Shown: positions 11,245-64,000 of the stretch, piece after piece | Position numbering within the stretch: position 1 is the first letter of the stretch | Layout of the letters: each line of letters opens with the position of its first letter | Origin: Escherichia phage APCEc01 | Strand: one strand, 5' to 3' | Sequence record: NC_029091.1 | Length of the DNA: 64,000 bases | Program-made: the position numbers and the translations under genes | Notes under the pieces: model-generated | The model's database searches: none | Seen by the model: the letters and a program-made list of their open reading frames with translations, nothing else | Told to the model about the DNA's origin: nothing

Positions 11245-11979
11245 ATGGAGCTAATCTTTTTAAGTGGCATCAAACGTAGTGGTAAAGACACCACTGCTGA
11301 TTACATCAATTCAAACTTTAAATCCGTAAAATACCAATTAGCATATCCAATTAAAGACGCTCTAGCAATAGCCTGGGGACGTAGGCATGCTGAAAATCCT
11401 GATGTATTCACAGAGTTGAAATACGAATACTTTGAAGGCATTGGATACGACCGTGAAACACCATTAAATCTCAATAAGTTGGATGTTATTGAATTATTGG
11501 AAGAAGCGCTAATTTATTTGCAAAGTCAATATTTACCGATTAATAATGTTAAAGTATTATCATCGTTAGAAGGTGGATATTCGTATCTAGATATTAAACC
11601 ATATGAAGCCCTGCGTGAAGCTATAAATAATATCAACGACACATGGTCAATCCGCCGTCTTATGCAAGCCCTCGGTACGGATGTTGTCGTTAATTTATTT
11701 GACCGTATGTATTGGGTTAAACTTTTTGCATTAAACTATATGGATTATATTGGAAGTGATTTCGATTACTATGTTGTGACCGATACACGCCAAGTCCATG
11801 AAATGGAAACCGCTAGAGCGATGGGTGCTACAGTTATTCATGTGGTTCGCTCTGGTACGGAATCCACCGATAAACATATTACAGAAGCTGGGTTGCCTAT
11901 TGAAGAAGGCGATTTAGTTATTACAAACGACGGCTCTTTAGAAGAGCTTTATTCTAAAATTGAAACAATCTTAAGGTAA
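11245..11979 (+). CDS. 1: deoxynucleoside monophosphate kinase gp1
   Basis: 244-aa ORF starting MELIFLSGIKRSGKDTTADYINS with P-loop GxKRSGKDT, as in T4 gp1. Confidence 0.9.
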   Translation: MELIFLSGIKRSGKDTTADYINSNFKSVKYQLAYPIKDALAIAWGRRHAENPDVFTELKYEYFEGIGYDRETPLNLNKLDVIELLEEALIYLQSQYLPINNVKVLSSLEGGYSYLDIKPYEALREAINNINDTWSIRRLMQALGTDVVVNLFDRMYWVKLFALNYMDYIGSDFDYYVVTDTRQVHEMETARAMGATVIHVVRSGTESTDKHITEAGLPIEEGDLVITNDGSLEELYSKIETILR

Positions 11980-13104: not shown

Positions 13105-13290
13105 ATGAAACGCGCTGAACTGATTCGTAATGTTGCTGTAGTAATTGCTTCAATGGCTTTTAGTTTTTCGATGTTTGTAGGATTCATTTGCGGACTACTG
13201 ACAACAACTGAAAATTCTATCTCATTGGTAGTAGCATTTCTAATCGGTTTAATCGCTATCGTTATGGATAAAATTGCAAAAGGTGAGTAA
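13105..13290 (+). CDS. small hydrophobic membrane protein
   Basis: 61-aa product from ATG after GGAG; single hydrophobic segment. Confidence 0.5.
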   Translation: MKRAELIRNVAVVIASMAFSFSMFVGFICGLLTTTENSISLVVAFLIGLIAIVMDKIAKGE

Positions 13291-13291
13291 A

Positions 13292-13654
13292 ATGAAATAT
13301 CACGTATATGCGGATTTTGAAGCAAATCCTTCTAAAGACCCTGATTGTCGTTTGATACGCAAACCATTTGATTCAGCAGCTCAAGCATGGACTTGGATTA
13401 AATCTAAATCGCCTGGTTATATGTTCTTTGAAGTAGTCGATGACAATGGTACACTGCATCCAGAACCTACAGAAACTATTAATTTCCTTCTGTTTGCTGG
13501 TTACGACTGTTATCCTCTTGGTGGTATTGATGATCTTGTTGCTACAGGAAAAACTGTTGAGGCTCTTCGCGAAATTTATAAAAACGCAGAAGAAAATTTT
13601 GACTGGTACCAGATTGTCAGTGCACATACTTTTGAAGTGGTGGAACACTCATGA
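13292..13654 (+). CDS. hypothetical protein
   Basis: 120-aa product from ATG after GGTGAG RBS; no recognisable family. Confidence 0.55.
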   Translation: MKYHVYADFEANPSKDPDCRLIRKPFDSAAQAWTWIKSKSPGYMFFEVVDDNGTLHPEPTETINFLLFAGYDCYPLGGIDDLVATGKTVEALREIYKNAEENFDWYQIVSAHTFEVVEHS

Positions 13655-13941
13655 TTCTTTACGCTAAAGTAAAATCTGTCGAGAACGGATATGAAAGCGA
13701 TCAACGTGCAGCTAAAGCACTAGTCGATGACTATGGTATTTTGACTAATTTTGAAGTTGAAAAGGTTTATATCGACCGTTCATCTTCGCAAGTTAAATTA
13801 CTCTGTGAAGATGATAAATTTAACACAGTTAACTTTGATTTCTTTATTGAAACAGAAAAAGGCCCTCTTGAATATGATATTTTCAAGAATCCTTTGAAAT
13901 TACGTTGCATTGAATATAATTACATTAATATGGTACGGTGA
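13651..13941 (+). CDS. hypothetical protein
   Basis: 96-aa ORF, start overlaps upstream stop. Confidence 0.5.
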   Translation: MILYAKVKSVENGYESDQRAAKALVDDYGILTNFEVEKVYIDRSSSQVKLLCEDDKFNTVNFDFFIETEKGPLEYDIFKNPLKLRCIEYNYINMVR

Positions 13942-13945
13942 GTAA

Positions 13946-14461
13946 ATGAATATTTGTTTAGGCAGTACAATTCCTAAGGGTTACGTAATTGATGTCACTA
14001 CTTGGGAAAATGACGGCGACAACTATAAAACTAAAACGTTGTTTGGTGTAGAAGAGCATGAGCTCCAACAGTTTAAATATCTCTTGAAGAAATTTAAGAG
14101 TCGTCATTCCAGCACTAAAGCTGAACGTTACTGTGGTAATACACCATTCAGTGATTGCTCGCTTTTAATCTATGAATACTTGGTTGAAGGACTGTTCTCA
14201 GACCAGCTTTATCCAGAATTCATTAAAAAGGTCTTTGGTATTGAAGTCGACCTTGGTAATAAATCTGAAGAAGACGAATCGCGTGTATTTGACCTGTTCC
14301 ATGAGAATGGATATTTAGTATCAGAAGGTCTCATTGATATTCTTGGCCATGCTTCTGAATATTATGATTATGATTTCTTGCGTGTAGTTGAATGTGTTGA
14401 ATTTGCTTATATTGAAGAAGAAATCGTTTTGCCGACTGTTAAAATGATTGATTTGCTTTAA
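13946..14461 (+). CDS. hypothetical protein
   Basis: 171-aa ORF after GGTGAG RBS. Confidence 0.55.
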   Translation: MNICLGSTIPKGYVIDVTTWENDGDNYKTKTLFGVEEHELQQFKYLLKKFKSRHSSTKAERYCGNTPFSDCSLLIYEYLVEGLFSDQLYPEFIKKVFGIEVDLGNKSEEDESRVFDLFHENGYLVSEGLIDILGHASEYYDYDFLRVVECVEFAYIEEEIVLPTVKMIDLL

Positions 14462-14540
14462 GAATTATGTGTTATTATTAATTCATACCCTCTATTACCA
14501 AAGGTGCTCTAAAGTGCCTTTCATAATAGAAAGTTATTTA

Positions 14541-14614
14541 GGCCCTGTAGCTCAATGGTTAGCAGCAGTCCCCTCATAAGGGAAAGGTTACCAGTTCGAA
14601 TCTGGTCTGGGTCA
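14541..14614 (+). tRNA. tRNA with CAT anticodon (Met, or Ile if C34 is modified)
   Basis: Cloverleaf: acceptor GGCCCTG/CTGGGTC, T-arm ACCAG-TTCGAAT-CTGGT, anticodon loop CTCATAA; no encoded CCA. Confidence 0.75.
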
Positions 14615-14620
14615 TATATT

Positions 14621-14697
<77 letters not shown>

Positions 14698-14715
14698 ACT
14701 TTAAGTGAGGAAAAT

Positions 14716-17747: not shown

Positions 17748-18350
17748 ATGCGAAACCAAAATAATGATATTGACTCAATGTTCGAAGAGTTCCGAGATAA
17801 GGTAAATCCACCTACGTCTTTAGTTGATTCATTACGATATGTTGCAACCGGACGTAAATGGTACTGGTCGTCTTCTTATGAGACTACTGAGAAAACGGCT
17901 AGCCATAGCAGAAAATCTTTATTAGCCCCAGGTATTATGATTCATGATATCGGAGCTATTGCTAAACTAGTTGCAGACCATGATATTAGATTCACCGATT
18001 TCGTTGCTCCTACATGGTCTGTTTGTTGTTTAAACACTGAATGGGAATATATCAGCGAACGCTCTAAAGATTATTATGGTTTTAGAGATAAGCTTCTGAG
18101 GTCTAACATGTTTTATATTGATACAGAAGTTCTGGTCAATAATAAAAAATACTACTTCACTTTAATCGTCGATTCTGAAACTATGTATGAAGGCGGGCCT
18201 TTGCTTAAGAGAGTTGATGCTTTAAGTGCTATTGATGCGCTTTATGAAACTATGGTTGTTAGTCCTAATTTCACTAACAATTTAATCCTTGAGCAATTTA
18301 TTATGGAATGTAGAGAATATGTCAAAGCCAACCCTGTACATGCCAATTAA
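17748..18350 (+). CDS. hypothetical protein; C-terminus has FIMECR motif
   Basis: 200-aa product from ATG after GGAG; ends ...EQFIMECREYVKANPVHAN. Confidence 0.5.
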   Translation: MRNQNNDIDSMFEEFRDKVNPPTSLVDSLRYVATGRKWYWSSSYETTEKTASHSRKSLLAPGIMIHDIGAIAKLVADHDIRFTDFVAPTWSVCCLNTEWEYISERSKDYYGFRDKLLRSNMFYIDTEVLVNNKKYYFTLIVDSETMYEGGPLLKRVDALSAIDALYETMVVSPNFTNNLILEQFIMECREYVKANPVHAN

Positions 18351-48170: not shown

Positions 48171-48436
48171 AATTAACTCGAATCAGTATAACTGAAGAAA
48201 AGCTGGGCGAATTTTATGTTGACGAATACATGAAAGTCACGTATTTTCCATTCGTTAAAGGTGTTGGTTTTTGGGAAACTCATGTATCTCAATTAAACGA
48301 AGGCGACTATAACGAAACACATGAGAACTTTTTAGATTTTCTTTATAATGCCGGTCTTACTGAGCTTTATATCGATATCCATGAGTTCAAACGTTTAATG
48401 GAAAAAGTGTTTCAGGCTTATTGTTTGCTCCGATAG
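48167..48436 (+). CDS. hypothetical protein
   Basis: 89-aa ORF. Confidence 0.5.
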   Translation: MKLTRISITEEKLGEFYVDEYMKVTYFPFVKGVGFWETHVSQLNEGDYNETHENFLDFLYNAGLTELYIDIHEFKRLMEKVFQAYCLLR

Positions 48437-48443
48437 TATCTCG

Positions 48444-48490
48444 TGCTTTAAGATAGGTCTCTAAATATTATGATATAATAGACCTATGAA
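48444..48490 (+). promoter_or_regulatory. promoter with stem-loop upstream of gene 55
   Basis: TGCTTTA at 48444-48450, TATAAT at 48474-48479 flanked by inverted repeat ATAGGTCT/AGACCTAT. Confidence 0.4.
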
Positions 48491-48508
48491 TTGAGCCAAG
48501 AGGTACTT

Positions 48509-49066
48509 ATGACTGAACAAAAACCTAAAAATAACTATGTGAATAATAAAGAGCTTCTCGCCGCTATAATCGAGTGGAAAAAGGAGCTCTTAAATAATAA
48601 AGACCCAAACAAAATTATTCGTCAGAATGATACCATCGGTTTAGCAATTATGCTTATCGCCGAAGGCCTGTCCAAACGTTTCAACTTTTCAGGATATACC
48701 CAGTCTTGGAAGCAGGAGATGATTGCAGATGGGATTGAAGCCTCTATTAAGGGACTTCATAATTTCGACGAAACTAAGTACAATAACCCACATGCATACA
48801 TAACTCGAGCTTGTTTTAATGCTTTTGTCCAACGTATCAAAAAAGAACGTAAGGAAGTTGCAAAGAAATATAGTTACTTCGTTCATAATGTCTACGACAG
48901 TCATGACGATGATATGGTAGCGTTGGTAGATGAAACGTTTATTCAAGACATCTACGATAAAATGACGCATTATGAAGAATCCGCTTATAAAGCTCCTGGG
49001 GCTGAAAAGAAGGAAGTTGTTAGCGATTCGCCTAGTTTGGATTTTTTATATGAGGATGACAATTGA
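48509..49066 (+). CDS. 55: late-transcription sigma factor gp55
   Basis: 185-aa product [35 protein letters not shown]...[44 protein letters not shown]..., close to T4 gp55. Confidence 0.93.
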
Positions 49067-49266
49067 CATCTCTAACTACTTAGAAGAACCTTTTGACGAA
49101 GCAATCCCTTATTTGGTAAAACTGTTGGGTCGTGAATTTAAAATTAATTTTGACATCGACCCTTTGAACCCACATGACGTGTCATTTTCGATAAATGGGA
49201 CTCCGGTTGAGTATGAGTTCTGTATTGAAGAGGATGGACGTTTTTATTTTAATTTAATGAGATAAT

Positions 49267-49590
49267 ATGACTACCGAGATTATTGAAAATAAAGAAGCAG
49301 AAGATGCAGTAGCTAAAATGCTACAAGAAATCCAAAAGAAAAATGAAGCTGAAGCACGTAAAAAATCCGAAAAGATTCTTAAAAAGAATCGTTTTGAACT
49401 AAACCGTCTTTATGCTCATGCTCAAGAAGCAGCAATTCAAAACAACTTCGAAGCTTACGAATATGCTATTAAGAAATCTCGGGATATTCTACGACAACCA
49501 TATAATGACAAGTTAATTAAAATCCAGTGGGTTACTACTCGTCAGGCTATTGAGGACATCATTAATGGCGCTAGTTCAAACAAAGTTTAA
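49267..49590 (+). CDS. hypothetical protein
   Basis: 107-aa ORF. Confidence 0.5.
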   Translation: MTTEIIENKEAEDAVAKMLQEIQKKNEAEARKKSEKILKKNRFELNRLYAHAQEAAIQNNFEAYEYAIKKSRDILRQPYNDKLIKIQWVTTRQAIEDIINGASSNKV

Positions 49591-49810
49591 ACGTCTAAAG
49601 CTGAACGCAGGGTTCACCCTTAAATTGGGAGGTCCTCTTTGTGTTAAAATCTCTGAAAAGGAATATCACGACGGTTCTATTACAGAAATTTGTCCGCCTA
49701 TTGTAAAGGCAGACCCAAAACAACTCGTGTGGGTTGATTCATTTCAAGTTAAGAAATGGTGGAAACGATGAGAGAAATCGGTTTAGGTATTTTCTGAGAG
49801 GTGCTTATGC

Positions 49811-49984
49811 ATGACGAACATCCCGACTTCTGAAAATTTCGATAAAATCCGTAAAGGCAAAGCAGAAAGAATGAGACGTTTTAAAGAGTCTTATGATAAA
49901 GCTAAAGCCGAAGGAACTATTACATACAAGCCCATTCGATTTAAAAGTTCAAATGAGCCTCTGTACGGTGTACTATGTGGATAG
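49811..49984 (+). CDS. hypothetical small basic protein
   Basis: 57-aa ORF ending at the terminator hairpin. Confidence 0.35.
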   Translation: MTNIPTSENFDKIRKGKAERMRRFKESYDKAKAEGTITYKPIRFKSSNEPLYGVLCG

Positions 49985-50011
49985 GAACTCTTCGGAGTTC
50001 CTTTTTTTTTT
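49984..50011 (+). terminator. strong intrinsic terminator
   Basis: GGAACTC-TTCG-GAGTTCC followed by T10. Confidence 0.8.
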
Positions 50012-50034
50012 GCTTTATAAACGGATGATAAAAT
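50011..50034 (+). promoter_or_regulatory. MotA-dependent middle promoter candidate for gene 47
   Basis: TGCTTTA at 50011-50017, 11 nt, TAAAAT at 50029-50034. Confidence 0.45.
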
Positions 50035-50057
50035 GAATTAACTAATGAGGAAATAAT

Positions 50058-51077
50058 ATGAAAATTTTGCACTTAGGCGACTTCCATATCGGAGTCAAAC
50101 AAGACGACCCATGGGTTCAAGATATTCAACGTGATGGTATTCGTCAAGCAATTGAATACTCTAAGAAACACGGGATTAAAACTTGGATTCAGTACGGTGA
50201 TTGGTTTGACGTCCGTAAAGCAATAACACATCGTACAATGGAATTCAATCGTGAAATCGTTGATATGATTTCTAAAGCAGGCATTCACGTTCATGTCACG
50301 ATAGGAAACCATGACATGGCGTTTAAGAATACAATAACACCTAACACTGTTTCTGAATTGTTAACTCAATTTGAAAACTTTACTATTTATGAACATCCAA
50401 CTACTGTAGATTTTGACGGATGTCTGATTGATATCGTTCCATGGATGTGTGAAGAAAATACAGGTGAAATCTTAGAGCACATCAAGACTTCTTCCGCAGC
50501 GTATTGTGTTGGGCACTGGGAACTGAATGGCTTTTATTTCTATAAAGGAATGAAGTCTCATGGGCTTGAACCTGATTTCTTAAAGACCTATAAACAAGTC
50601 TGGTCTGGCCACTTCCACACAATCTCTGAAGCTGCTAACGTCAAATATATTGGGACACCATGGACCCTTACTGCAGGTGATGAGAACGACCCGCGCGGAT
50701 TCTGGGTATTTGACACTGATGTTGAACGTATGGAATTTATTCCTAATGAAACAACATGGCATCGACGAATCACTTATCCGTTTAAAGGCAAAATCAATTA
50801 TTCTGATTATACTAATCTAGCCTTACGTGTTATAGTATCAGAAATTGATTCAGAGTTGACTAAGTTTGAATCTGAACTTGAAAAAGTAGTTCACTCTCTT
50901 CGTATGGTTTCTAAAGTTGATAACAGTGTTGAATCTGATGACGACCAGGAAATCGAGATTAAATCACTTCAAGATATCATTAAAGAATATATTGACGCGA
51001 TTCCAGATATCTCAGACGAAGACAGAGAAGCGCTGGTCAAATATTCCAACGAACTTTATATTGAGGCAACACAATGA
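50058..51077 (+). CDS. 47: recombination nuclease subunit gp47 (Mre11/SbcD-like)
   Basis: 339 aa (same as T4 gp47), MKILHLGDFHIG phosphoesterase motif. Confidence 0.93.
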   Translation: MKILHLGDFHIGVKQDDPWVQDIQRDGIRQAIEYSKKHGIKTWIQYGDWFDVRKAITHRTMEFNREIVDMISKAGIHVHVTIGNHDMAFKNTITPNTVSELLTQFENFTIYEHPTTVDFDGCLIDIVPWMCEENTGEILEHIKTSSAAYCVGHWELNGFYFYKGMKSHGLEPDFLKTYKQVWSGHFHTISEAANVKYIGTPWTLTAGDENDPRGFWVFDTDVERMEFIPNETTWHRRITYPFKGKINYSDYTNLALRVIVSEIDSELTKFESELEKVVHSLRMVSKVDNSVESDDDQEIEIKSLQDIIKEYIDAIPDISDEDREALVKYSNELYIEATQ

Positions 51078-51331
51078 CTTTAGATGAATTTAATAATGCT
51101 GGGCTTGGACTTGAAGTTGAAATGGACGTTAAAGACGATGATGGATTCGAGAACACTATCAAGTATTGGATTGAGCCATTACGCGTTGAAGGCAATGAAG
51201 TTAAAGCAGTTCATGTCTGCACCGACTGGGCTATTGAATTTAGCTTTAATATAATGGACAACGATACTCCCGGCTCTATTCTTAAAATGGCTGAAGCGTG
51301 TATTGAGGATGCGTATAATGACGAAGACTGA
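51074..51331 (+). CDS. hypothetical acidic protein
   Basis: 85-aa ORF between genes 47 and 46. Confidence 0.5.
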   Translation: MTLDEFNNAGLGLEVEMDVKDDDGFENTIKYWIEPLRVEGNEVKAVHVCTDWAIEFSFNIMDNDTPGSILKMAEACIEDAYNDED

Positions 51332-56698: not shown

Positions 56699-59410
56699 AT
56701 GAAAGAATTTTACTTAACGGTTGAACAGATTGGTGATTCAATTTTTGAACGTTACATCGATTCTAATGGCCGTGAACGTACTCGTGAAGTAGAATATAAA
56801 CCATCACTGTTTGCTCATTGTCCAGAAAGTCAGGCTACGAAATATTTCGATATCTACGGTAAGCCGTGTACTCGTAAGTTGTTCGCTAATATGCGTGATG
56901 CCTCCCAATGGATTAAACGCATGGAAGATATCGGACTTGAAGCACTTGGCATGGACGATTTCAAATTGGCGTATTTGTCTGACACTTATAACTATGAAAT
57001 CAAATACGACCATACAAAAATTCGTGTGGCTAACTTCGACATCGAAGTAACATCTCCGGACGGGTTCCCTGAGCCGTCACAAGCAAAACATCCGATTGAT
57101 GCTATCACCCATTATGACTCAATTGACGACAGGTTCTACGTATTTGATCTATTGAATTCTCCATATGGTAATGTAGAAGAATGGTCTATTGAAATCGCTG
57201 CTAAGCTTCAAGAACAAGGCGGTGATGAAGTTCCATCTGAAATTATCGATAAAATCATTTATATGCCGTTCGATAACGAAAAAGAATTGTTGATGGAATA
57301 TCTCAACTTCTGGCAACAGAAAACTCCTGTCATTTTGACTGGATGGAACGTTGAGTCATTTGATATTCCATATGTGTATAACCGAATCAAGAATATTTTT
57401 GGCGAATCTACTGCGAAACGTTTATCGCCACATCGTAAAACTCGTGTTAAAGTTATCGAAAACATGTATGGTTCTCGTGAAATCATTACATTGTTCGGTA
57501 TCTCTGTTCTTGATTACATTGGCCTTTACAAAAAATTCTCTTTTACCAATCAACCGTCGTATTCTCTGGATTACATTTCAGAATTTGAATTGAACGTTGG
57601 TAAACTGAAATATGACGGCCCTATTTCTAAGCTTCGTGAAAGCAATCACCAACGATATATTTCTTATAACATTATCGACGTGTATCGTGTATTGCAAATT
57701 GATGCTAAGCGTCAGTTCATCAACTTGAGCTTGGACATGGGTTATTATGCTAAGATACAGATTCAATCTGTGTTTAGCCCAATTAAAACATGGGATGCTA
57801 TTATTTTTAATAGCCTTAAAGAGCAGAACAAGGTGATTCCACAAGGTCGTTCTCACCCGGTTCAACCTTATCCCGGCGCTTTTGTTAAGGAACCTATTCC
57901 AAATCGATACAAATATGTAATGAGTTTCGACCTTACATCTCTGTATCCAAGTATTATTCGCCAAGTGAATATTAGCCCGGAAACAATAGCAGGAACGTTT
58001 AAAGTAGCTCCATTGCATGATTATATTAACGCAATCGCTGAACGTCCTTCAGATGTGTACAGTTGCTCTCCTAACGGCATGATGTATTATAAAGACCGTG
58101 ATGGTGTAGTTCCAACTGAAATCACTAAGGTCTTTAATCAACGTAAAGAACATAAAGGTTACATGCTTGCAGCTCAACGTAATGGTGAAATAATTAAAGA
58201 GGCATTGCATAATCCTAATCTTTCTGTTGACGAACCATTAGATGTTGATTATCGTTTCGACTTCAGTGATGAGATTAAAGAAAAGATTAAAAAGTTGTCT
58301 GCTAAATCTCTTAATGAAATGTTGTTTAGAGCTCAACGTACTGAAGTTGCAGGTATGACCGCACAAATTAACCGTAAATTGCTTATCAACTCACTTTATG
58401 GTGCACTTGGCAACGTTTGGTTCCGTTATTATGATTTGCGTAATGCTACTGCAATCACAACATTCGGGCAAATGGCTTTACAGTGGATTGAACGTAAAGT
58501 TAATGAATATCTGAATGAAGTTTGTGGTACAGAAGGTGAAGCTTTCGTTCTATATGGTGATACAGACTCTATTTACGTATCTGCTGATAAAATTATCGAT
58601 AAGGTTGGTGAATCTAAATTCCGTGATACCAACCATTGGGTAGACTTCTTAGATAAGTTTGCACGTGAACGTATGGAACCTGCTATTGATAGAGGTTTCC
58701 GTGAAATGTGTGAATACATGAACAATAAACAACACTTAATGTTCATGGACCGAGAAGCTATCGCTGGTCCTCCGCTCGGTTCTAAAGGTATTGGTGGATT
58801 CTGGACTGGTAAGAAACGTTATGCATTAAACGTGTGGGATATGGAAGGAACCAGATACGCTGAGCCTAAACTCAAAATCATGGGTCTAGAGACTCAGAAA
58901 TCTTCGACCCCTAAAGCAGTACAGAAAGCTCTTAAAGAATGTATTCGTCGTATGCTTCAAGAAGGTGAAGAATCATTACAAGAATATTTTAAAGAGTTTG
59001 AAAAAGAATTCCGTCAATTGAATTATATTAGCATCGCGTCGGTATCTTCTGCGAATAACATTGCTAAATACGACGTAGGTGGATTCCCGGGTCCTAAATG
59101 CCCGTTCCATATTCGTGGAATTCTGACATATAACCGAGCTATCAAAGGTAATATTGATGCACCACAAGTTGTAGAAGGTGAAAAAGTATATGTTCTGCCT
59201 TTACGTGAAGGAAACCCATTCGGTGATAAATGTATCGCATGGCCTTCTGGTACTGAAATCACAGATTTAATTAAAGACGATGTACTTCATTGGATGGACT
59301 ACACTGTTCTCCTTGAGAAGACATTTATTAAACCACTTGAAGGATTCACATCAGCAGCTAAACTCGATTACGAGAAGAAAGCATCTCTGTTCGATATGTT
59401 TGATTTTTGA
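56699..59410 (+). CDS. 43: DNA polymerase gp43 (family B, RB69-type)
   Basis: 903 aa; MKEFYLTVEQIGDSIFERYIDSNGRERTREVEYKPSLFAHCPESQATKYFDIYGKPCTRKLF..., exo motif FDIEV, pol motifs DLTSLYPS and YGDTDS, C-terminal SLFDMFDF. Confidence 0.97.
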   Translation: MKEFYLTVEQIGDSIFERYIDSNGRERTREVEYKPSLFAHCPESQATKYFDIYGKPCTRKLFANMRDASQWIKRMEDIGLEALGMDDFKLAYLSDTYNYEIKYDHTKIRVANFDIEVTSPDGFPEPSQAKHPIDAITHYDSIDDRFYVFDLLNSPYGNVEEWSIEIAAKLQEQGGDEVPSEIIDKIIYMPFDNEKELLMEYLNFWQQKTPVILTGWNVESFDIPYVYNRIKNIFGESTAKRLSPHRKTRVKVIENMYGSREIITLFGISVLDYIGLYKKFSFTNQPSYSLDYISEFELNVGKLKYDGPISKLRESNHQRYISYNIIDVYRVLQIDAKRQFINLSLDMGYYAKIQIQSVFSPIKTWDAIIFNSLKEQNKVIPQGRSHPVQPYPGAFVKEPIPNRYKYVMSFDLTSLYPSIIRQVNISPETIAGTFKVAPLHDYINAIAERPSDVYSCSPNGMMYYKDRDGVVPTEITKVFNQRKEHKGYMLAAQRNGEIIKEALHNPNLSVDEPLDVDYRFDFSDEIKEKIKKLSAKSLNEMLFRAQRTEVAGMTAQINRKLLINSLYGALGNVWFRYYDLRNATAITTFGQMALQWIERKVNEYLNEVCGTEGEAFVLYGDTDSIYVSADKIIDKVGESKFRDTNHWVDFLDKFARERMEPAIDRGFREMCEYMNNKQHLMFMDREAIAGPPLGSKGIGGFWTGKKRYALNVWDMEGTRYAEPKLKIMGLETQKSSTPKAVQKALKECIRRMLQEGEESLQEYFKEFEKEFRQLNYISIASVSSANNIAKYDVGGFPGPKCPFHIRGILTYNRAIKGNIDAPQVVEGEKVYVLPLREGNPFGDKCIAWPSGTEITDLIKDDVLHWMDYTVLLEKTFIKPLEGFTSAAKLDYEKKASLFDMFDF

Positions 59411-59450: not shown

Positions 59451-60086
59451 ATGAAAACTACTCCTATTACTATCGCTATTGACGCAATCGTAAAACAAGC
59501 TTCATCTCTTGCCACTATGGCTAAAGTAATTAGTCAAAACCCTGCTCGTTATAATGCTATTCTAGAAACTCTTCGACGCCCTGGACTTAGTAATTATGAA
59601 AGCCGGGTAATTATTACAGGTGTTGGTAAGAATGCTAATATCGCAACTAAAGCTTCCGAGACTTTTGCTTCACTAGGTATTCCTAGCATGTATTTGAACA
59701 CCGGGCATTATTCTCATGGTGACGCAGGATTTATTGCGCCTAATGACGTGTTGATTCATATTAGTCGTTCTGGTAAAACTGAAGAAATGATAGGTGTTGC
59801 TAAACATCTTCGTATGATTCGTCCTCAGGTTAAACAGATTCTGTTACATTGTAACCCAGACATTCCACAAGAATACGAAGCTCTTTTTGATTATACGTTC
59901 TGTACCGGTATCGCGGTAGAAGTTGACGAGAACTCTTTAGCTCCGACTATGTCCACTACATTGTTGTTAGCGCTTATCGATACGTTTGCTATCAACCTTT
60001 CGTCTGAACGTGGATTTACCTCTAATGATTTCCTTAAGTTCCATCCAGGCGGTGCACTAGGTGCCATGTTACGAGGCGAACAATGA
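59451..60086 (+). CDS. D-arabinose-5-phosphate isomerase, SIS domain only (KdsD/GutQ-like, no CBS domains)
   Basis: 211 aa; VIITGVGKNANIATKASETFASLGIPSMYLNTGHYSHGDAGFIAPNDVLIHISRSGKTEE and LAPTMSTTLLLALIDTFAINLSSERGFTSNDFLKFHPGGALG parallel the KdsD SIS domain. Confidence 0.8.
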   Translation: MKTTPITIAIDAIVKQASSLATMAKVISQNPARYNAILETLRRPGLSNYESRVIITGVGKNANIATKASETFASLGIPSMYLNTGHYSHGDAGFIAPNDVLIHISRSGKTEEMIGVAKHLRMIRPQVKQILLHCNPDIPQEYEALFDYTFCTGIAVEVDENSLAPTMSTTLLLALIDTFAINLSSERGFTSNDFLKFHPGGALGAMLRGEQ

Positions 60087-60226
60087 AAGCAATAACAATA
60101 GGACTTTTACTATTGATGCTTGTCATGACTATCTACTGGAGCTTAACGGCTCCGGTAATGATTCCAACACTTGTAATTGGATGGATTATGATTGGACTAC
60201 AAGCAAAGTATGAATGCTTTAACTAG
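60083..60226 (+). CDS. small two-helix membrane peptide
   Basis: 47-aa ORF (MKAITIGLLLLMLVMTIYWSLTAPVMIPTLVIGWIMIGLQAKYECFN); start overlaps isomerase stop (ATGA); below the ORF-track length cut-off. Confidence 0.35.
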   Translation: MKAITIGLLLLMLVMTIYWSLTAPVMIPTLVIGWIMIGLQAKYECFN

Positions 60227-60267
60227 AATAGTGTACAATACTCCTACTTACCAATGAGGACTTCAAC

Positions 60268-61953
60268 ATGAAAAAAGCTGTTATTCTTGGTGCTGGACTG
60301 GCAACTCGTTTGTATCCAATAACGCATCATATTCCTAAGGTGCTTGTTAATTATAAACAAGACACTATTCTGAGCAATTTGTATACAATTTATTCTGACC
60401 TTGGCGCAGATGAAATTATTGTAGTAGTTCATTCAAAATTTGCTGAAACTGTTCGAGCTTATTGTGAGCAAGAAGGGTTCAATGTGACTATTCGTACAGT
60501 TGATGAAGCGTATGGTTCTGCTTATGCTCTTGCTAAATTACACAAAGATTTAGACGGCCATAATGTAATTGTTAACTGGTGTGATATTATTCCTGATTTT
60601 GGTTCATGGTCTTGGAATGTTAACGCAATCTATGTTAAGGGTGACGAATGTCGATATAATTTCGACGGTGAAAATATCACTAACGTAGGTTCAACAGGTG
60701 GTAATGTTGTAGGAATTTATCAGTTCAAAGACTGGGAATTCTATATGGGTTCTACCGATGAGGAAATTCATGAATACTGCAAAGGACGTGATTTCGTAGA
60801 ATTCCTTTACGGCAGCGCATTCAATAAATCAGAGCTTATGAATATAATTGATTTAGGTGATATGCCTAAACTTGAAAAGGCTCATGAAGTTCGTGAACTT
60901 AATCGTAGTTTTAATGCAGTTGAAATTGGTGAAGAAACTGTAACTAAATTCGCATTAACCGAACAGGGTCGAGCTCTTCAGAAAGATGAGATTTCGTGGT
61001 ATTTGAAAGTGAAATCAGATTCAGTTCCTCAGTTAGTTTCTGTTAATGAAAATAACTTTGAAATGGAACGCATTAAAGGTAAGCCAGCATTTGAATATAT
61101 TAAATCCAAATCAAGTCTTGCTCGTCCACAAATTGTTGATGCAATTTTAGATGCACTGAAATTCAGCACAGACACTTATTTTGTAAGTCCTGAAACTGTT
61201 CGTCGTGATTTCACTAAAGAATTCTATACGAAAGTTATTGATCGTTGTGAAAGCATTCAACCGTTGATTGATTCATTTGGTAAAATCACACATGTGAACT
61301 ACACTAAGATTGGACGTCTGAAGCCAATGCTGAAACAAGCTTTAGAACACCTTATTCGGTATCATAACCGTTCTCAGGGACAGTACTCTGTTATTCACGG
61401 TGACCCGAACTTCAGTAATACTATGATTACTGATAACGGCGAAGTCAAGTTTATCGACCCTCGTGGATATTTTGGCGAAACCAAGATTTACGGGCCAAAA
61501 TTGTATGATGAAGCTAAAGTGCTTTATGCTGTTTCAGGTTATGATGAATTCAATGCTAATCCGACCTGGGGGCAGTTTACTATTGATGAAACAACTTGTA
61601 ATGTGACTATTAACATCAATCCATTAGTTTACAAATATGGAAAGATGAGTTCGTTTAACGAGTATCATCATTTGGCAGTGGCAATTATCTGGATTGCATT
61701 AGGTGGTTATTTCAAGAATAATCCACTTAAAGCGGTAGCCGCATATTATAAAGGTATGGAACTTCTGACTAAGCAATTACGTAACATGGGCCGTGTACTT
61801 CAGGACGGCTCTATTAGTTATGACGTAGCAGAACCTGTAACGGCTACTCTGATTACAAAAAATCCTGGTAAATGGGTACTAACTGATAAAGAAACTGGTG
61901 TTTCCTATCGTCCAATCGGTGGCGATATCACTCATCAATGGGAACGAATCTAA
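60268..61953 (+). CDS. bifunctional sugar-1-phosphate nucleotidyltransferase / sugar kinase
   Basis: 561 aa; N-terminal MKKAVILGAGLATRLYPIT is the RmlA/GalU/LicC-type G-x-G-T-R-L motif; C-terminal part has kinase motifs HGDPNFSNTMI and FIDPRGYFG (APH/choline-kinase fold). Confidence 0.75.
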   Translation: MKKAVILGAGLATRLYPITHHIPKVLVNYKQDTILSNLYTIYSDLGADEIIVVVHSKFAETVRAYCEQEGFNVTIRTVDEAYGSAYALAKLHKDLDGHNVIVNWCDIIPDFGSWSWNVNAIYVKGDECRYNFDGENITNVGSTGGNVVGIYQFKDWEFYMGSTDEEIHEYCKGRDFVEFLYGSAFNKSELMNIIDLGDMPKLEKAHEVRELNRSFNAVEIGEETVTKFALTEQGRALQKDEISWYLKVKSDSVPQLVSVNENNFEMERIKGKPAFEYIKSKSSLARPQIVDAILDALKFSTDTYFVSPETVRRDFTKEFYTKVIDRCESIQPLIDSFGKITHVNYTKIGRLKPMLKQALEHLIRYHNRSQGQYSVIHGDPNFSNTMITDNGEVKFIDPRGYFGETKIYGPKLYDEAKVLYAVSGYDEFNANPTWGQFTIDETTCNVTININPLVYKYGKMSSFNEYHHLAVAIIWIALGGYFKNNPLKAVAAYYKGMELLTKQLRNMGRVLQDGSISYDVAEPVTATLITKNPGKWVLTDKETGVSYRPIGGDITHQWERI

Positions 61954-62339
61954 TGCACCGTGTAGAAAACATGCTTAATCTTTGTTTTGATGTCGATGAT
62001 TGTATAACAGAGTGGAATAACAATCGTGATTACGTGAACTTCAAACCTGACGTCGAAATGGTGTCTGCCATTAATGCCCTGTATGATGCAGGGCATACCA
62101 TAACGCTTTACACTGCTCGCGGTATGAAGTCAGTAGGTCCTGGTCGTATAGCAATTGACATTCTCCCAAGTCTTATTCAGAACTTGGCAAACATTGGCTT
62201 GAAGTACCATAATTTGCTAACACATAAACCAGTATATGATTGGATTATCGACGACAAAGCTATGCGTCCTGACGAATTCAAAGCTCTTATGAATAAAGGC
62301 GAATTCGAAACATTTAAATCATATAAACCGAATCTATAA
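61953..62339 (+). CDS. small HAD-superfamily phosphatase
   Basis: 128-aa product from ATG overlapping the upstream stop (TAATG); HAD motifs FDVDDCIT, TLYTARG, K, WIIDDK. Confidence 0.7.
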   Translation: MHRVENMLNLCFDVDDCITEWNNNRDYVNFKPDVEMVSAINALYDAGHTITLYTARGMKSVGPGRIAIDILPSLIQNLANIGLKYHNLLTHKPVYDWIIDDKAMRPDEFKALMNKGEFETFKSYKPNL

Positions 62340-62399
62340 TAATTTAAGTAAGACCTGCAAAAAAAAACCATCGCATCAATTAACGCGAGATGCAAAAAA

Positions 62400-63560
62400 A
62401 TGAATACTTTTAAAATCGGAACGAATTTTGATTTAGCTCTTCTTGATAAAATCGTAGAGCTCAATAAAACTTATCCTAATAGCTTGATAAATGAAGTATA
62501 CGGCTCTACAAGAGAAATGGCTTTTGTAGCAGCCAGACCTGATTTTAGGCTTCCTGACGTTGACAAAAAGATGTTAGAAGATTACGTTAAACGTTGTAAC
62601 GAATTAGGTATTTGCTTTAACTATACACTCAACACGATAAATCCTGGTTCAAAAAGAGAACTAGTTGAGTGGAAGAAGAAAGCTATTCAGGATTATGTTC
62701 AGTATCTTTGGTCAATAGGCGTATGGCGTATTACTATCGCTAACCCTGTTGTTATGGAAATTGTTCGTGAAGTCAATAAAGACATTGAGATTGAAGTTTC
62801 AACAATTCTACATGTCGATGCTGTAACTCAAATCAAATACTTGCATGACCAATATAATATCAAAAAGGTCTGCTGTGGAATTCATAAGAACCGTTCAGTT
62901 TCTTTCCTGAAGCGTGCAGCAGAGTTTTGCAATAAGAACAATATAATATTTGAAGTTCTTGTAAATGAGTTCTGTTCTAATGCTGGTAAAGGGTATACAA
63001 CACATTGTAGCTATCGTGACTCTTGCTATATTTTCCATAGTACTGATGTTACAGCTGATGATGCTAAATCCTTAAACGGATATCCTATGCAGCACTGTAT
63101 TAAAGCTCGTGATACAGACCCATTTAACTGGTTGAGAACTCGTTTTGTTCGTCCTCAAGATTTGAAACTTTATAATGATATTGGTATCACTCAATTCAAA
63201 GTTTCAGGACGTACAGGTAGCACAGACTACATTTTGAAAGTTCTTGAAGCATACGCTTCTGAAAAGTTTGAAGGTAATTTGTTAGAACTGTGGAAGCCTT
63301 TAGAGACTATTTTCACTCTTGAAAACGAAACTGAGTTTTCACATACAGTAAATATTGAAACCTCTTTGTTAGATGGCTTTTTAGAAAAAAGGTGGTTCAG
63401 ACATCCAGATTTCGATTGTGCTAATGAAATCTGCGGGACGACGTGTACATATTGTGAAAGATATTATAAACGTCAATTATCTAAAAACGGGTTAGCAGAA
63501 AACTCTATATCTATTATTGATATAACTAACTCTGATGACGCTTTGAGGTACCCGGAATGA
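62400..63560 (+). CDS. peptidase U32 family protein (Fe-S, RlhA/TrhP/UbiU-like)
   Basis: 386 aa; ANPVVMEIVREVNKDIEIEVSTILHVDAVTQIKYLH...IIFEVLVNEFCSNAGKGYTTHCSYRDSCY parallels the U32 core; extra C-terminal CANEICGTTCTYC cluster; assignment from memory, not HMM-verified. Confidence 0.5.
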   Translation: MNTFKIGTNFDLALLDKIVELNKTYPNSLINEVYGSTREMAFVAARPDFRLPDVDKKMLEDYVKRCNELGICFNYTLNTINPGSKRELVEWKKKAIQDYVQYLWSIGVWRITIANPVVMEIVREVNKDIEIEVSTILHVDAVTQIKYLHDQYNIKKVCCGIHKNRSVSFLKRAAEFCNKNNIIFEVLVNEFCSNAGKGYTTHCSYRDSCYIFHSTDVTADDAKSLNGYPMQHCIKARDTDPFNWLRTRFVRPQDLKLYNDIGITQFKVSGRTGSTDYILKVLEAYASEKFEGNLLELWKPLETIFTLENETEFSHTVNIETSLLDGFLEKRWFRHPDFDCANEICGTTCTYCERYYKRQLSKNGLAENSISIIDITNSDDALRYPE

Positions 63561-63796
63561 TTTCTAGAAAAACTTTTAACCACCAACTTAATGAAGAGAT
63601 TTTGACTATGAAACTGAACACTAATGAACAAATTCTTAAAAAGGCCCATCAGGGCCTTTTTGAAACTAAAGCGGCTAAAGTGATTAAAGAACCTGTTCAA
63701 TTAGAATACTACGCTGATGCATTTCTTCATAGTGTTCTTGGAAGTATCGATGCCGAAGCTTTACGTTATATCAATATTGCCAAGAAATTCAAATAA
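63557..63796 (+). CDS. hypothetical protein
   Basis: 79-aa ORF, start overlaps upstream stop. Confidence 0.5.
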   Translation: MISRKTFNHQLNEEILTMKLNTNEQILKKAHQGLFETKAAKVIKEPVQLEYYADAFLHSVLGSIDAEALRYINIAKKFK

Positions 63797-63820
63797 GCTT
63801 TACGAATTGAGTATATAATA
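63794..63820 (+). promoter_or_regulatory. MotA-dependent middle promoter candidate
   Basis: TAAGCTTTA box ending 63802, 11 nt, TATAAT at 63814-63819. Confidence 0.5.
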
Positions 63821-63837: not shown

Positions 63838-64000
63838 ATGGGAAAACATAACACAATGAAATATATCAAAGCCGCAGATTTTCAAACCGCATTTAAAGCA
63901 GTCAATCGTGAAATTTTAGAAAACCCGGAATTCGTAACTGATTCTCGTATTGGACGTTGTAATGAAATTGGGTCTATGACAGTAGTTGTTGACACTCCAT
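63838..64000 (+). CDS. 42: dCMP hydroxymethylase (gene 42-like), 5' part only
   Basis: Partial ORF MGKHNTMKYIKAADFQTAFKAVNREILENPEFVTDSRIGRCNEIGSMTVVVDTP; EFVTD...IG...VVVDTP loosely parallels T4 gp42 DFVVDKTGVKTIEIIGASFVADEP; runs off window. Confidence 0.5.
   Translation, partial: MGKHNTMKYIKAADFQTAFKAVNREILENPEFVTDSRIGRCNEIGSMTVVVDTP

Follow-up and report, generated by a model that had tools for sequence, protein, structure and literature searches.

In phage T4, hydroxymethylcytosine (hmC) is made by gp42 and is glucosylated by the alpha- and beta-glucosyltransferases (a-gt and b-gt) using UDP-glucose of the host. A different chemistry has been described for phage RB69 in papers from 2025-2026: as revealed by NMR and mass spectrometry, its DNA contains 5-hydroxycytosine bearing one or more arabinose units, attached through an ether bond to the C5 oxygen itself, and gp48 is no hydroxymethylase but a 5-hydroxy-dCMP synthase that depends on flavin and O2 (PMC13326640). 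Expression of gp48 led to 5hodC, with incorporation of 18O2 and bound flavin (PMC13326640). An earlier study from 2018 had reported arabinosyl-hmC for RB69 (PMC6024577), while arabinosyl-5-hydroxy-dC has been independently reported for Bas46/47 and HY126. Whether a phage carries glucosyl-hmC bears on its sensitivity to restriction and CRISPR, on how its DNA can be sequenced and cloned, and on which phages are chosen for therapy.

A 64-kb stretch of the genome of Escherichia phage APCEc01 (NC_029091.1, hereafter the window) was examined. Judged by its sequence, the window is of Mosigvirus origin, i.e. from an RB69-like T-even phage. Results taken together indicate that APCEc01 is very probably a Mosigvirus that lacks the a-gt cassette and arabinosylates 5-hydroxycytosine instead of glucosylating hmC.

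Gene content between genes 55 and 47

Genes 55 and 47 are separated by 991 bases containing four small + strand ORFs. The features of the interval and its flanking genes are as follows.

48509 to 49066, + strand: gene 55, late sigma factor (185 aa; phrog_234, E 4e-68)
49050 to 49265, + strand: a-gt.5 homolog, 71 aa (T4 a-gt.5, tblastn E 1e-14; Pfam DUF5491, E 5e-13)
49267 to 49590, + strand: a-gt.4 homolog, 107 aa (T4 a-gt.4, E 2e-32; Pfam DUF2654, E 1e-27; RB69, 100%)
49565 to 49771, + strand: a-gt.3 homolog, 68 aa (T4 a-gt.3, E 2e-29; phrog_1648, E 2e-34; RB69, 100%)
49811 to 49984, + strand: a-gt.2 homolog, 57 aa (T4 a-gt.2, E 3e-24; Pfam DUF5486, E 5e-28; RB69, 94.7%)
49983 to 50011, + strand: intrinsic terminator (8-bp stem AGGAACTC/GAGTTCCT, UUCG loop, T10 run; terminator scan)
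50011 to 50034, + strand: predicted MotA-type middle promoter for gene 47 (pattern match)
50058 to 51077, + strand: gene 47, SbcD-like recombination nuclease subunit (339 aa; phrog_100, E 7e-135)

The initial annotation had described this interval as about 1 kb of small ORFs of 57 to 107 aa with a terminator and a middle promoter but without a-gt, and this description is borne out, since the only genes present are the homologs of a-gt.5, a-gt.4, a-gt.3, and a-gt.2. The gene 55 product is 90.7% identical to T4 gp55 and 99.5% identical to RB69 gp55, while the gene 47 product shares 75.5% identity with T4 gp47 and 99.7% with its RB69 counterpart. The a-gt.5 homolog is 100% identical to RB69 a-gt.5, and its first 17 nt are shared with the 3' end of gene 55, an overlap also seen in T4. 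An Rfam scan of positions 48400-50400 gave no match.

In T4, 2283 extra bases encoding the homing endonuclease mobB, a-gt, and 47.1 lie between a-gt.2 and gene 47; these are absent from the window, where the spacer measures 73 nt. A recent deletion private to the APCEc01 isolate, or a faulty assembly, could be proposed because this short spacer sits exactly where T4 bears the cassette. Such an event is extremely improbable given the relatives. The order 55, a-gt.5 to a-gt.2, 47 is common to the window, RB69, mar005P1, and JK36, the identical junction occurs in RB69, JK36, mar005P1, and 308Ecol101PP, and at least 145 phage records match the uninterrupted 55-to-47 query over 80% or more of its length. 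Across the interval RB69 has 98% nucleotide identity to the window, and JK36 has 99.7% at 48400-51100 and 98-99% over nearly the whole window. The conserved terminator and promoter at the junction are also found in another genus (VR26), and a repeat search and composition profile at the a-gt.2/47 junction detected no scar, repeat, or compositional break. The layout without a-gt is the normal state of Mosigvirus, a real but ordinary feature that was already known.

Distribution of the a-gt cassette

Homologs of a-gt were found in 657 phage records and homologs of gp47 in 2567. Among the matches listed, the a-gt homologs belonged to Tequatrovirus-type coliphages and, at 60-80% identity, to Klebsiella phages, and the cassette occurs in Tequatrovirus and Jiaodavirus. 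Only small ORFs part genes 55 and 47 in most Straboviridae genera examined, and a-gt was not found between the two genes in Gaprivervirus, Lazarusvirus, or Tulanevirus. The reading of the a-gt absence as a special loss was rejected on this distribution. Rather, a-gt is a lineage-specific cassette, set between two copies of the stem-loop/MotA-promoter module in Tequatrovirus (with mobB and 47.1) and Jiaodavirus, and simply lies outside the gene complement of Mosigvirus. Recombination between copies of this module presumably accounts for the gain or loss of the cassette; the argument for a direction, whether acquisition by the T4 lineage or disappearance from others, draws solely on distribution.

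Terminator and putative middle promoter upstream of gene 47

The stem-loop of the terminator occupies 49983-50002, with the T run extending to 50011, and its predicted fold has a dG of -12.2 kcal/mol (z of -3.2 versus shuffles). The predicted promoter comprises TGCTTTA (50011-50017), an 11-nt spacer, and TAAAAT (50029-50034). The MotA-box pattern occurred 16 times in the window versus 2.7 times expected by chance, and the genes for MotA and AsiA are carried by the nearest genome. From its sequence, the element is likely to act as a promoter for gene 47.

RB69 has the same terminator and promoter module, differing in a terminator run of 6 T versus 10 T in the window, and in T4 a-gt.2 is likewise followed by a hairpin and a MotA-box promoter. 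A homologous hairpin is located 3' of a-gt.2 in T4, VR26, and Mineola. The unit of hairpin, GCTTTA box, and -10 element is present as a single copy in the window, RB69, and VR26, while in T4 and Mineola the hairpin and MotA-box module flanks a-gt on both sides. This arrangement resembles the published PeSLs of T4-type phages, which are early-promoter/stem-loop shuffling modules (PMC2839356, PMC4122927), in that a stem-loop and a promoter border a cassette variably present among relatives. It differs from them in having a MotA middle-type promoter rather than an early one. By analogy, the hairpin/promoter module of the 55-47 locus may have a role in recombination.

Search for glucosyltransferase genes

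Searches by tblastn with T4 a-gt, b-gt, mobB, and 47.1 detected no homolog in the window, and those with a-gt and b-gt detected none in the complete 168,893-base genome of JK36, where the best match to b-gt had an E value of 4.3. These results are in agreement with literature reports that RB69 lacks both a-gt and b-gt (PMC6024577, PMC13326640). The best match to a-gt, at 17835-18014 of the window (E 0.014 over 69 aa), within a 200-aa ORF without a Pfam family, was dismissed as chance. Glycosyltransferase domains were sought in six large uncharacterised ORFs of the region (orthologs of JK36_00091-93, 96, 98, and 133), and none was found. The b-gt position beside gene 42 falls past the end of the window; as read from JK36 and RB69, it is filled by the unrelated gp46:47 and gp45.

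A predicted synthase gene at the gene 42 position

The window ends within a gene at the position of T4 gene 42, and a dNMP kinase gene lies elsewhere in the window.

11245 to 11979, + strand: dNMP kinase, gene 1 (phrog_139, E 2e-59; annotated so in JK36)
63838 to 64000, + strand: predicted 5-hydroxy-dCMP synthase (ThyA superfamily), first 54 codons (100% identical to RB69 gp48 residues 1-54)

With T4 gp42 as the tblastn query, the fragment at the gene 42 position was not detected in the window; it can be identified solely by its match to the N-terminal part of RB69 gp48. The full-length gp48 ortholog of JK36 is 24.8% identical to T4 gp42. At ThyA position 169 the synthases of RB69, JK36, LC53, and PWKp16 have N, the D169N signature of 5hodCMP synthases, and T4 gp42 has D; in the APCEc01 gene this residue lies beyond the window and is expected, from the relatives, to be N. 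RB69 gp159, a dNMP kinase, phosphorylates 5hodCMP.

The initial annotation had taken the gene at the window end for a gene 42 homolog and had concluded that the DNA contains hmC with another sugar or none. The first point holds insofar as the 54 codons are the start of a ThyA-superfamily gene, which is, however, of the RB69 gp48 type and not a hydroxymethylase. The choice of hmC as the base is contradicted by the 5-hydroxycytosine of RB69 and the identification of gp48 as a 5-hydroxy-dCMP synthase (PMC13326640). DNA with hmC made by a T4-type gene 42 enzyme, carrying another sugar on the hydroxymethyl group or left bare, would be consistent with the presence of a ThyA-superfamily gene at this position, with the arabinosyl-hmC assignment of 2018, and with the substitutions N177D and L143E that gp48 shares with T4 gp42. 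It is nonetheless very unlikely, as the NMR and mass spectrometry data place arabinose on 5-hydroxycytosine, gp48 yields 5hodC, the reports for Bas46/47 and HY126 are independent, and gp48, at approximately 25% identity to gp42, carries D169N. A ThyA homolog at the gene 42 position thus does not imply hmC, since the D169N branch makes 5-hydroxy-dCMP.

Arabinose pathway

Genes of an NDP-arabinose pathway of the Afh type (isomerase, kinase/nucleotidyltransferase, and HAD phosphatase) are present at 59.4-62.3 kb of the window, which in T4 is the site of imm and imm.1.

59451 to 60086, + strand: arabinose-5-phosphate isomerase (RB69 gp55 ortholog, 97%; SIS domain; KpsF/GutQ TIGR00393, E 5e-32; phrog_5670)
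60268 to 61953, + strand: bifunctional sugar kinase/nucleotidyltransferase, AfhE-like (RB69 gp53 and gp52, 99%; NTP_transferase domain, weak kinase domains)
61953 to 62339, + strand: HAD-type phosphatase, AfhF-like (RB69 gp51, 99%; capsule biosynthesis phosphatase TIGR01689, E 4e-13)

In RB69, gp52:53 makes UDP-arabinose, and the gp51-type HAD phosphatase has a role in the arabinose pathway (PMC13326640). The kinase/nucleotidyltransferase is one intact ORF in the window but split in the RB69 record, a split that has been attributed to sequencing error (PMC13326640). The completeness of the UDP-arabinose pathway encoded here speaks against DNA that is left unmodified. Of the two options left by the initial annotation, a different sugar is upheld, the sugar being arabinose, and the absence of any sugar is excluded for the Mosigvirus lineage.

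The predicted DNA arabinosyltransferases of RB69, gp46:47 and gp3, have orthologs in JK36 that are 99-100% identical. As both loci fall outside the window, the presence of these enzymes in APCEc01 is inferred from its relatives, and their genes probably lie just beyond the stretch analyzed. For the gp3 and gp46:47 orthologs of JK36, Pfam and NCBIfam searches gave no family; both proteins are assigned as glycosyltransferases from profile and structure comparisons in the literature. Because Pfam misses both proteins entirely, sequence searches are blind to proteins of this kind, and a glucosyltransferase too diverged for tblastn might be imagined elsewhere in a genome whose DNA is still glucosylated, the more so as HHpred and structure prediction give gp3 and gp46:47 a GT-B fold with distant similarity to T4 a-gt. 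This reading is highly improbable: sugar analysis of RB69 DNA gave arabinose, not glucose, NDP-arabinose is made by a pathway that the phage itself encodes, and the related glycosyltransferases of DLP3 have been shown experimentally to transfer arabinose.

Under the preferred reading, arabinosylation of 5-hydroxycytosine, the diverged thymidylate-synthase homolog at the gene 42 position would make 5-hydroxy-dCMP, and 5-hydroxycytosine would enter DNA in place of C. Arabinofuranose from UDP-arabinose would then be transferred onto the 5-hydroxyl of the base in DNA. APCEc01 DNA is thus expected to bear the same modification as that of RB69.

A U32-family gene and possible anaerobic hydroxylation

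Two further genes are located between the arabinose pathway and the synthase.

62400 to 63560, + strand: U32-family protein, RB69 gp50 ortholog (99% identical to gp50; Pfam Peptidase_U32)
63557 to 63796, + strand: small ORF of 79 aa, RB69 gp49 (94% identical to gp49; no Pfam family)

The U32 protein matched PF01136 with an E value of 7e-11 (42.2 bits, cut-off 22.4), and in a 2026 NAR paper the description of gp50 goes no further than "sugar or heterocycle reductase". The gene was found in 220 phage records; among the matches listed, the hosts were Enterobacterales or Shewanella, all facultative anaerobes. It is absent from the cluster of the Acinetobacter phage DLP3, in which the synthase is present, and from some E. 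coli phages (Dhakavirus UP19). In 51 records of related phages the U32 gene and the ThyA homolog are separated by a CM_2 chorismate mutase gene; no chorismate mutase gene was found in the 64-kb window. The small gp49 ORF was considered as a diverged chorismate mutase and rejected, as it resembles none of the chorismate mutases of phages and has no Pfam match, and phiR1-RT and 92A1 have both gp49-type and chorismate mutase genes.

The window protein shares the Peptidase_U32 domain with UbiU/UbiV, TrhP, and RlhA, which are prephenate-dependent, O2-independent hydroxylases, RlhA making 5-hydroxycytidine. In phage relatives the U32 gene is adjacent to that for chorismate mutase, which makes prephenate; this adjacency in 51 records suggests a possible oxygen-independent, prephenate-dependent hydroxylation route. 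The phage proteins differ from these enzymes in lacking the canonical Fe-S motif with its usual spacing: in an alignment, only two of the four Cys positions of the UbiU/V, RlhA, and TrhP motif are Cys in the phage U32 proteins, which have other conserved Cys, including an extra C-terminal CX4CX3CX2C. In addition, BLASTP of the U32 protein against the four E. coli paralogs and PDB sequences gave no significant match. By analogy, it is tentatively proposed that the U32 protein, part of the DNA-modification system found in place of a-gt, could be such a hydroxylase, providing these gut phages with an anaerobic route to 5-hydroxycytosine or another hydroxylated intermediate, a route that may operate alongside gp48, whose reaction needs O2 and flavin. 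Besides family membership and the chorismate mutase genes, the facultatively anaerobic hosts and the lack of U32 in the DLP3 cluster speak for this proposal; its lack in UP19 and the altered Fe-S motif speak against it. If true, prephenate-dependent anaerobic hydroxylation would extend to viral DNA modification.

Comparison with T4 and RB69

The absence of a-gt was a correct diagnostic clue to a T-even-like phage without glucosyl-hmC DNA. For the RB69 lineage the answer, arabinosylated 5-hydroxycytosine, is already published, and the 55-47 locus of APCEc01 adds no new biology. Similarity to RB69 is close throughout: the products of the four small ORFs are each 94.7-100% identical to their RB69 counterparts, and those of gp49 through gp55 and the start of gp48, from the gp45-gp55 arabinosylation cluster of RB69, are 94-100% identical. 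Gene 55, gene 47, and each of the four small ORFs also have T4 orthologs, at 47-91% identity. Both lineages replace C with a C5-oxygenated cytosine derived from a ThyA homolog, which is then glycosylated on DNA. They differ in the enzyme, gp42 and gp48 being roughly one-quarter identical (~25%), and in the product, which is hmC with glucose in T4 whereas in the RB69 lineage it is 5-hydroxycytosine with arabinose supplied by a phage-encoded pathway.

Gene content between genes 55 and 47

Megablast of 48400-51100 returned 99.7% identity to Shigella phage JK36, the nearest complete genome, and at least 99% identity to 28 records; the best matches were all Mosigvirus, and 145 records covered the contiguous 55-to-47 query. 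Identity was 98-99% to JK36 over nearly the full window length and 98% to RB69, the type phage of Mosigvirus, over the 55-47 interval. RB69 is annotated in the same order as the window (55, a-gt.5, a-gt.4, a-gt.3, a-gt.2, 47), and its small proteins of this interval share 94.7-100% identity with those found here. Among Mosigviruses otherwise 98-99% identical, window 13349-14700 is a variable region: the ORFs at 13274-14461 (~1.3 kb) have no close match in JK36, and there are two tRNA genes (Met, 14541-14614; Arg, 14621-14697) compared with ten in JK36.

Features of the 55-47 interval and its borders
48509-49066, gene 55; 90.7% identity to T4 gp55 (tblastn); expected PHROG family
49050-49265, + strand, a-gt.5 ortholog; 71 aa; DUF5491
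49267-49590, + strand, a-gt.4 ortholog; 107 aa; DUF2654
49565-49771, + strand, a-gt.3 ortholog; 68 aa; phrog_1648
49811-49984, + strand, a-gt.2 ortholog; 57 aa; DUF5486
49983-50002 (T run to 50011), intrinsic terminator; 8-bp GC-rich stem, UUCG loop, 3' of the a-gt.2 stop codon
50011-50034, predicted MotA-type middle promoter; TGCTTTA, 11-nt spacer, TAAAAT
50058-51077, gene 47; 75.5% identity to T4 gp47 (tblastn); expected PHROG family

The initial annotation described an interval holding only small ORFs of 57 to 107 aa, a terminator and a middle promoter, and this observation was confirmed in every detail. From the ORF map and the sequence, the gene 55 stop codon (TGA, 49064-49066) and the gene 47 ATG (50058) form its exact limits, and the four intervening ORFs are orthologs of T4 a-gt.5, a-gt.4, a-gt.3 and a-gt.2 (tblastn E 1e-14 to 2e-32). 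The terminator folds with a dG of -12.2 kcal/mol (z -3.2). The window contains the MotA-box pattern 16 times where 2.7 are expected, a six-fold enrichment, and MotA and AsiA are encoded by JK36. Rfam gave no match in the interval, and a repeat search and composition profile found neither repeat nor compositional anomaly at the a-gt.2-to-47 junction. The terminator T run (50002-50011) is longer than that of RB69 (10 T against 6), a homopolymer length difference placed exactly between hairpin and MotA box.

Absence of glucosyltransferase genes

In T4, 2283 bases separate a-gt.2 from gene 47 and contain mobB (an HNH homing endonuclease gene), the alpha-glucosyltransferase gene a-gt, and 47.1, whereas the window has 73. 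Queried by tblastn, T4 a-gt, beta-glucosyltransferase (b-gt), mobB and 47.1 had no credible match in either the window or the complete JK36 genome of 168,893 bases. The search and the 73-base spacer bear out the reported lack of a-gt between genes 55 and 47, and no glucosyltransferase gene was found elsewhere in either sequence. The best a-gt match (E 0.014, 69 aa) was judged to be chance; it falls within an ORF of 200 aa that has no match in Pfam. The same conclusion, no a-gt or b-gt, has been published for RB69 (PMC6024577, PMC13326640). In the T4 record (L003 16580-16640), the -10 element TATAAT of the module following a-gt overlaps the ATG of 47.1, so a transcript from this promoter would exclude the 47.1 start codon.

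Probable arabinosylated 5-hydroxycytosine pathway

Arabinose cluster at the window end
56699-59410, gene 43; 5' border of the cluster
59451-60086, KpsF/GutQ-type arabinose-5-phosphate isomerase; RB69 gp55 match
60268-61953, nucleotidyltransferase/kinase fusion, 561 aa; RB69 gp52:53 match
61953-62339, HAD phosphatase; RB69 gp51 match
62400-63560, U32-family protein; RB69 gp50 match
63557-63796, 79-aa ORF; RB69 gp49 match; phrog_8601
63838-64000 (window end), thymidylate-synthase homolog, first 54 codons; RB69 gp48 match

These proteins share 94-100% identity with RB69 gp55, gp52:53, gp51, gp50, gp49 and gp48. The cluster (59451-63800) lies between genes 43 and 42, a position which in T4 (L003 6374-7014) is occupied by imm and imm.1; in JK36 and RB69 the latter lie beside sp instead. 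The kinase/nucleotidyltransferase gene is one intact 561-codon ORF, in agreement with the literature, which attributes the RB69 gp52/gp53 split to a sequencing error (PMC13326640). Just upstream, a second good MotA-box middle-promoter match (60215-60239) overlaps the end of a 47-aa ORF (60083-60226), for which the RB69 annotation notes similarity to the 42-imm intercistronic region of T4.

RB69 DNA was initially reported to carry arabinose on hydroxymethylcytosine (hmC) (PMC6024577). By MS and NMR, Lee et al. (NAR 2026) found its dC fully replaced by mono-/poly-arabinosylated 5-hydroxycytosine (PMC13326640). In the same work, gp48 with a dNMP kinase produced 5-hydroxydeoxycytidine in E. coli, gp48 bound flavin and incorporated 18O from O2, and the UDP-arabinofuranose pathway was assigned to gp55, gp52:53 and gp51; concordant findings for Bas46/47, HY126 and others are cited there (Mahler 2025; He 2026). 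The full-length JK36 gp48 ortholog has 24.8% identity to T4 gp42. At ThyA position 169 (aligned to an E. coli ThyA reference), RB69 and JK36 gp48 have Asn, the stated signature of 5-hydroxy-dCMP synthases (PMC13326640), and T4 gp42 has Asp.

Of the hmC DNA with a different sugar or none proposed in the initial annotation, the different sugar stands, an unglycosylated base is excluded for this lineage, and hmC gives way to 5-hydroxycytosine, the base that gp48 yields (PMC13326640). The supposed gene 42 homolog at the window end is equivalent to gene 42 in position, but the enzyme is probably a gp48-type 5-hydroxy-dCMP synthase. The predicted arabinosyltransferases RB69 gp46:47 and gp3 map outside the window and are 99-100% conserved in JK36; we infer that APCEc01 carries both and shares the DNA chemistry of RB69. 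Both the lack of a-gt at 55-47 and the arabinosyl-5-hydroxycytosine of this lineage are already known from the literature.

U32-family gene

RB69 gp50 appears in PMC13326640 only as a table label, 'sugar or heterocycle reductase', on which the text is silent. U32 homologs were 82-100% identical across 220 phage records, and the hosts named among the matches listed were all Enterobacterales or Shewanella, all facultative anaerobes. Acinetobacter phages (65 records) and Rhizobium phages carry the gp48-type synthase too; U32 is missing from the DLP3 cluster, gp76-gp83 (PMC13326640). An additional gene separates U32 from the synthase gene in 51 related records (among the relatives, the locus is at L013 5992-7502 and L014 4001-5403); its product in Serratia phage LC53 is assigned by Pfam to the type II chorismate mutases (CM_2, E 2e-11). 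Chorismate mutase produces prephenate. Prephenate is the oxygen donor in U32-dependent, O2-independent hydroxylation by UbiU/V, and is also needed by TrhP and by RlhA, maker of rRNA 5-hydroxycytidine (PMC10990095, PMC6599085, PMC5727448). This role, together with the chorismate mutase gene beside U32, suggests an anaerobic route to 5-hydroxycytosine, and a tentative possibility is that the U32 gene couples prephenate-dependent, O2-independent hydroxylation to the pathway. Against it, the E. coli phage UP19 (Dhakavirus) encodes the synthase without U32, the phage proteins retain only part of the canonical U32 four-cysteine motif in the alignment, and pairwise comparison with the four E. coli paralogs gave no significant similarity. 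A conserved C-terminal CX4CX3CX2C (63417-63455, residues C340-C352) may provide an alternative Fe-S site. Also against the idea, no chorismate mutase gene was found in the window. The gp49 ORF (63557-63796), translationally coupled to the U32 gene and of no known family, was rejected for this function: it lacks similarity to phage chorismate mutases, and Yersinia phage phiR1-RT and Serratia phage 92A1 carry both genes. The U32/chorismate mutase linkage is not discussed in the accessible literature.

Distribution of a-gt and comparison with related phages

Homologs of a-gt were present in 657 phage records and of gp47 in 2567; among the a-gt matches listed, identity was ~90% or higher for Tequatrovirus-type coliphages and 60-80% for Klebsiella phages. 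Lack of a-gt between genes 55 and 47 is not unusual, as the gap holds small ORFs only in Gaprivervirus VR26, Lazarusvirus KARL-1 and Tulanevirus 50AhydR13PP. In Jiaodavirus Mineola, a-gt lies between a-gt.2 and 47 without mobB. The hairpin, GCTTTA box and -10 element flank a-gt on both sides in T4 and Mineola and form a single copy at the junction in the window, RB69 and VR26, so a-gt acts as a cassette set between duplicated modules of terminator and middle promoter. Recombination at this module may either have created the cassette or have removed it.
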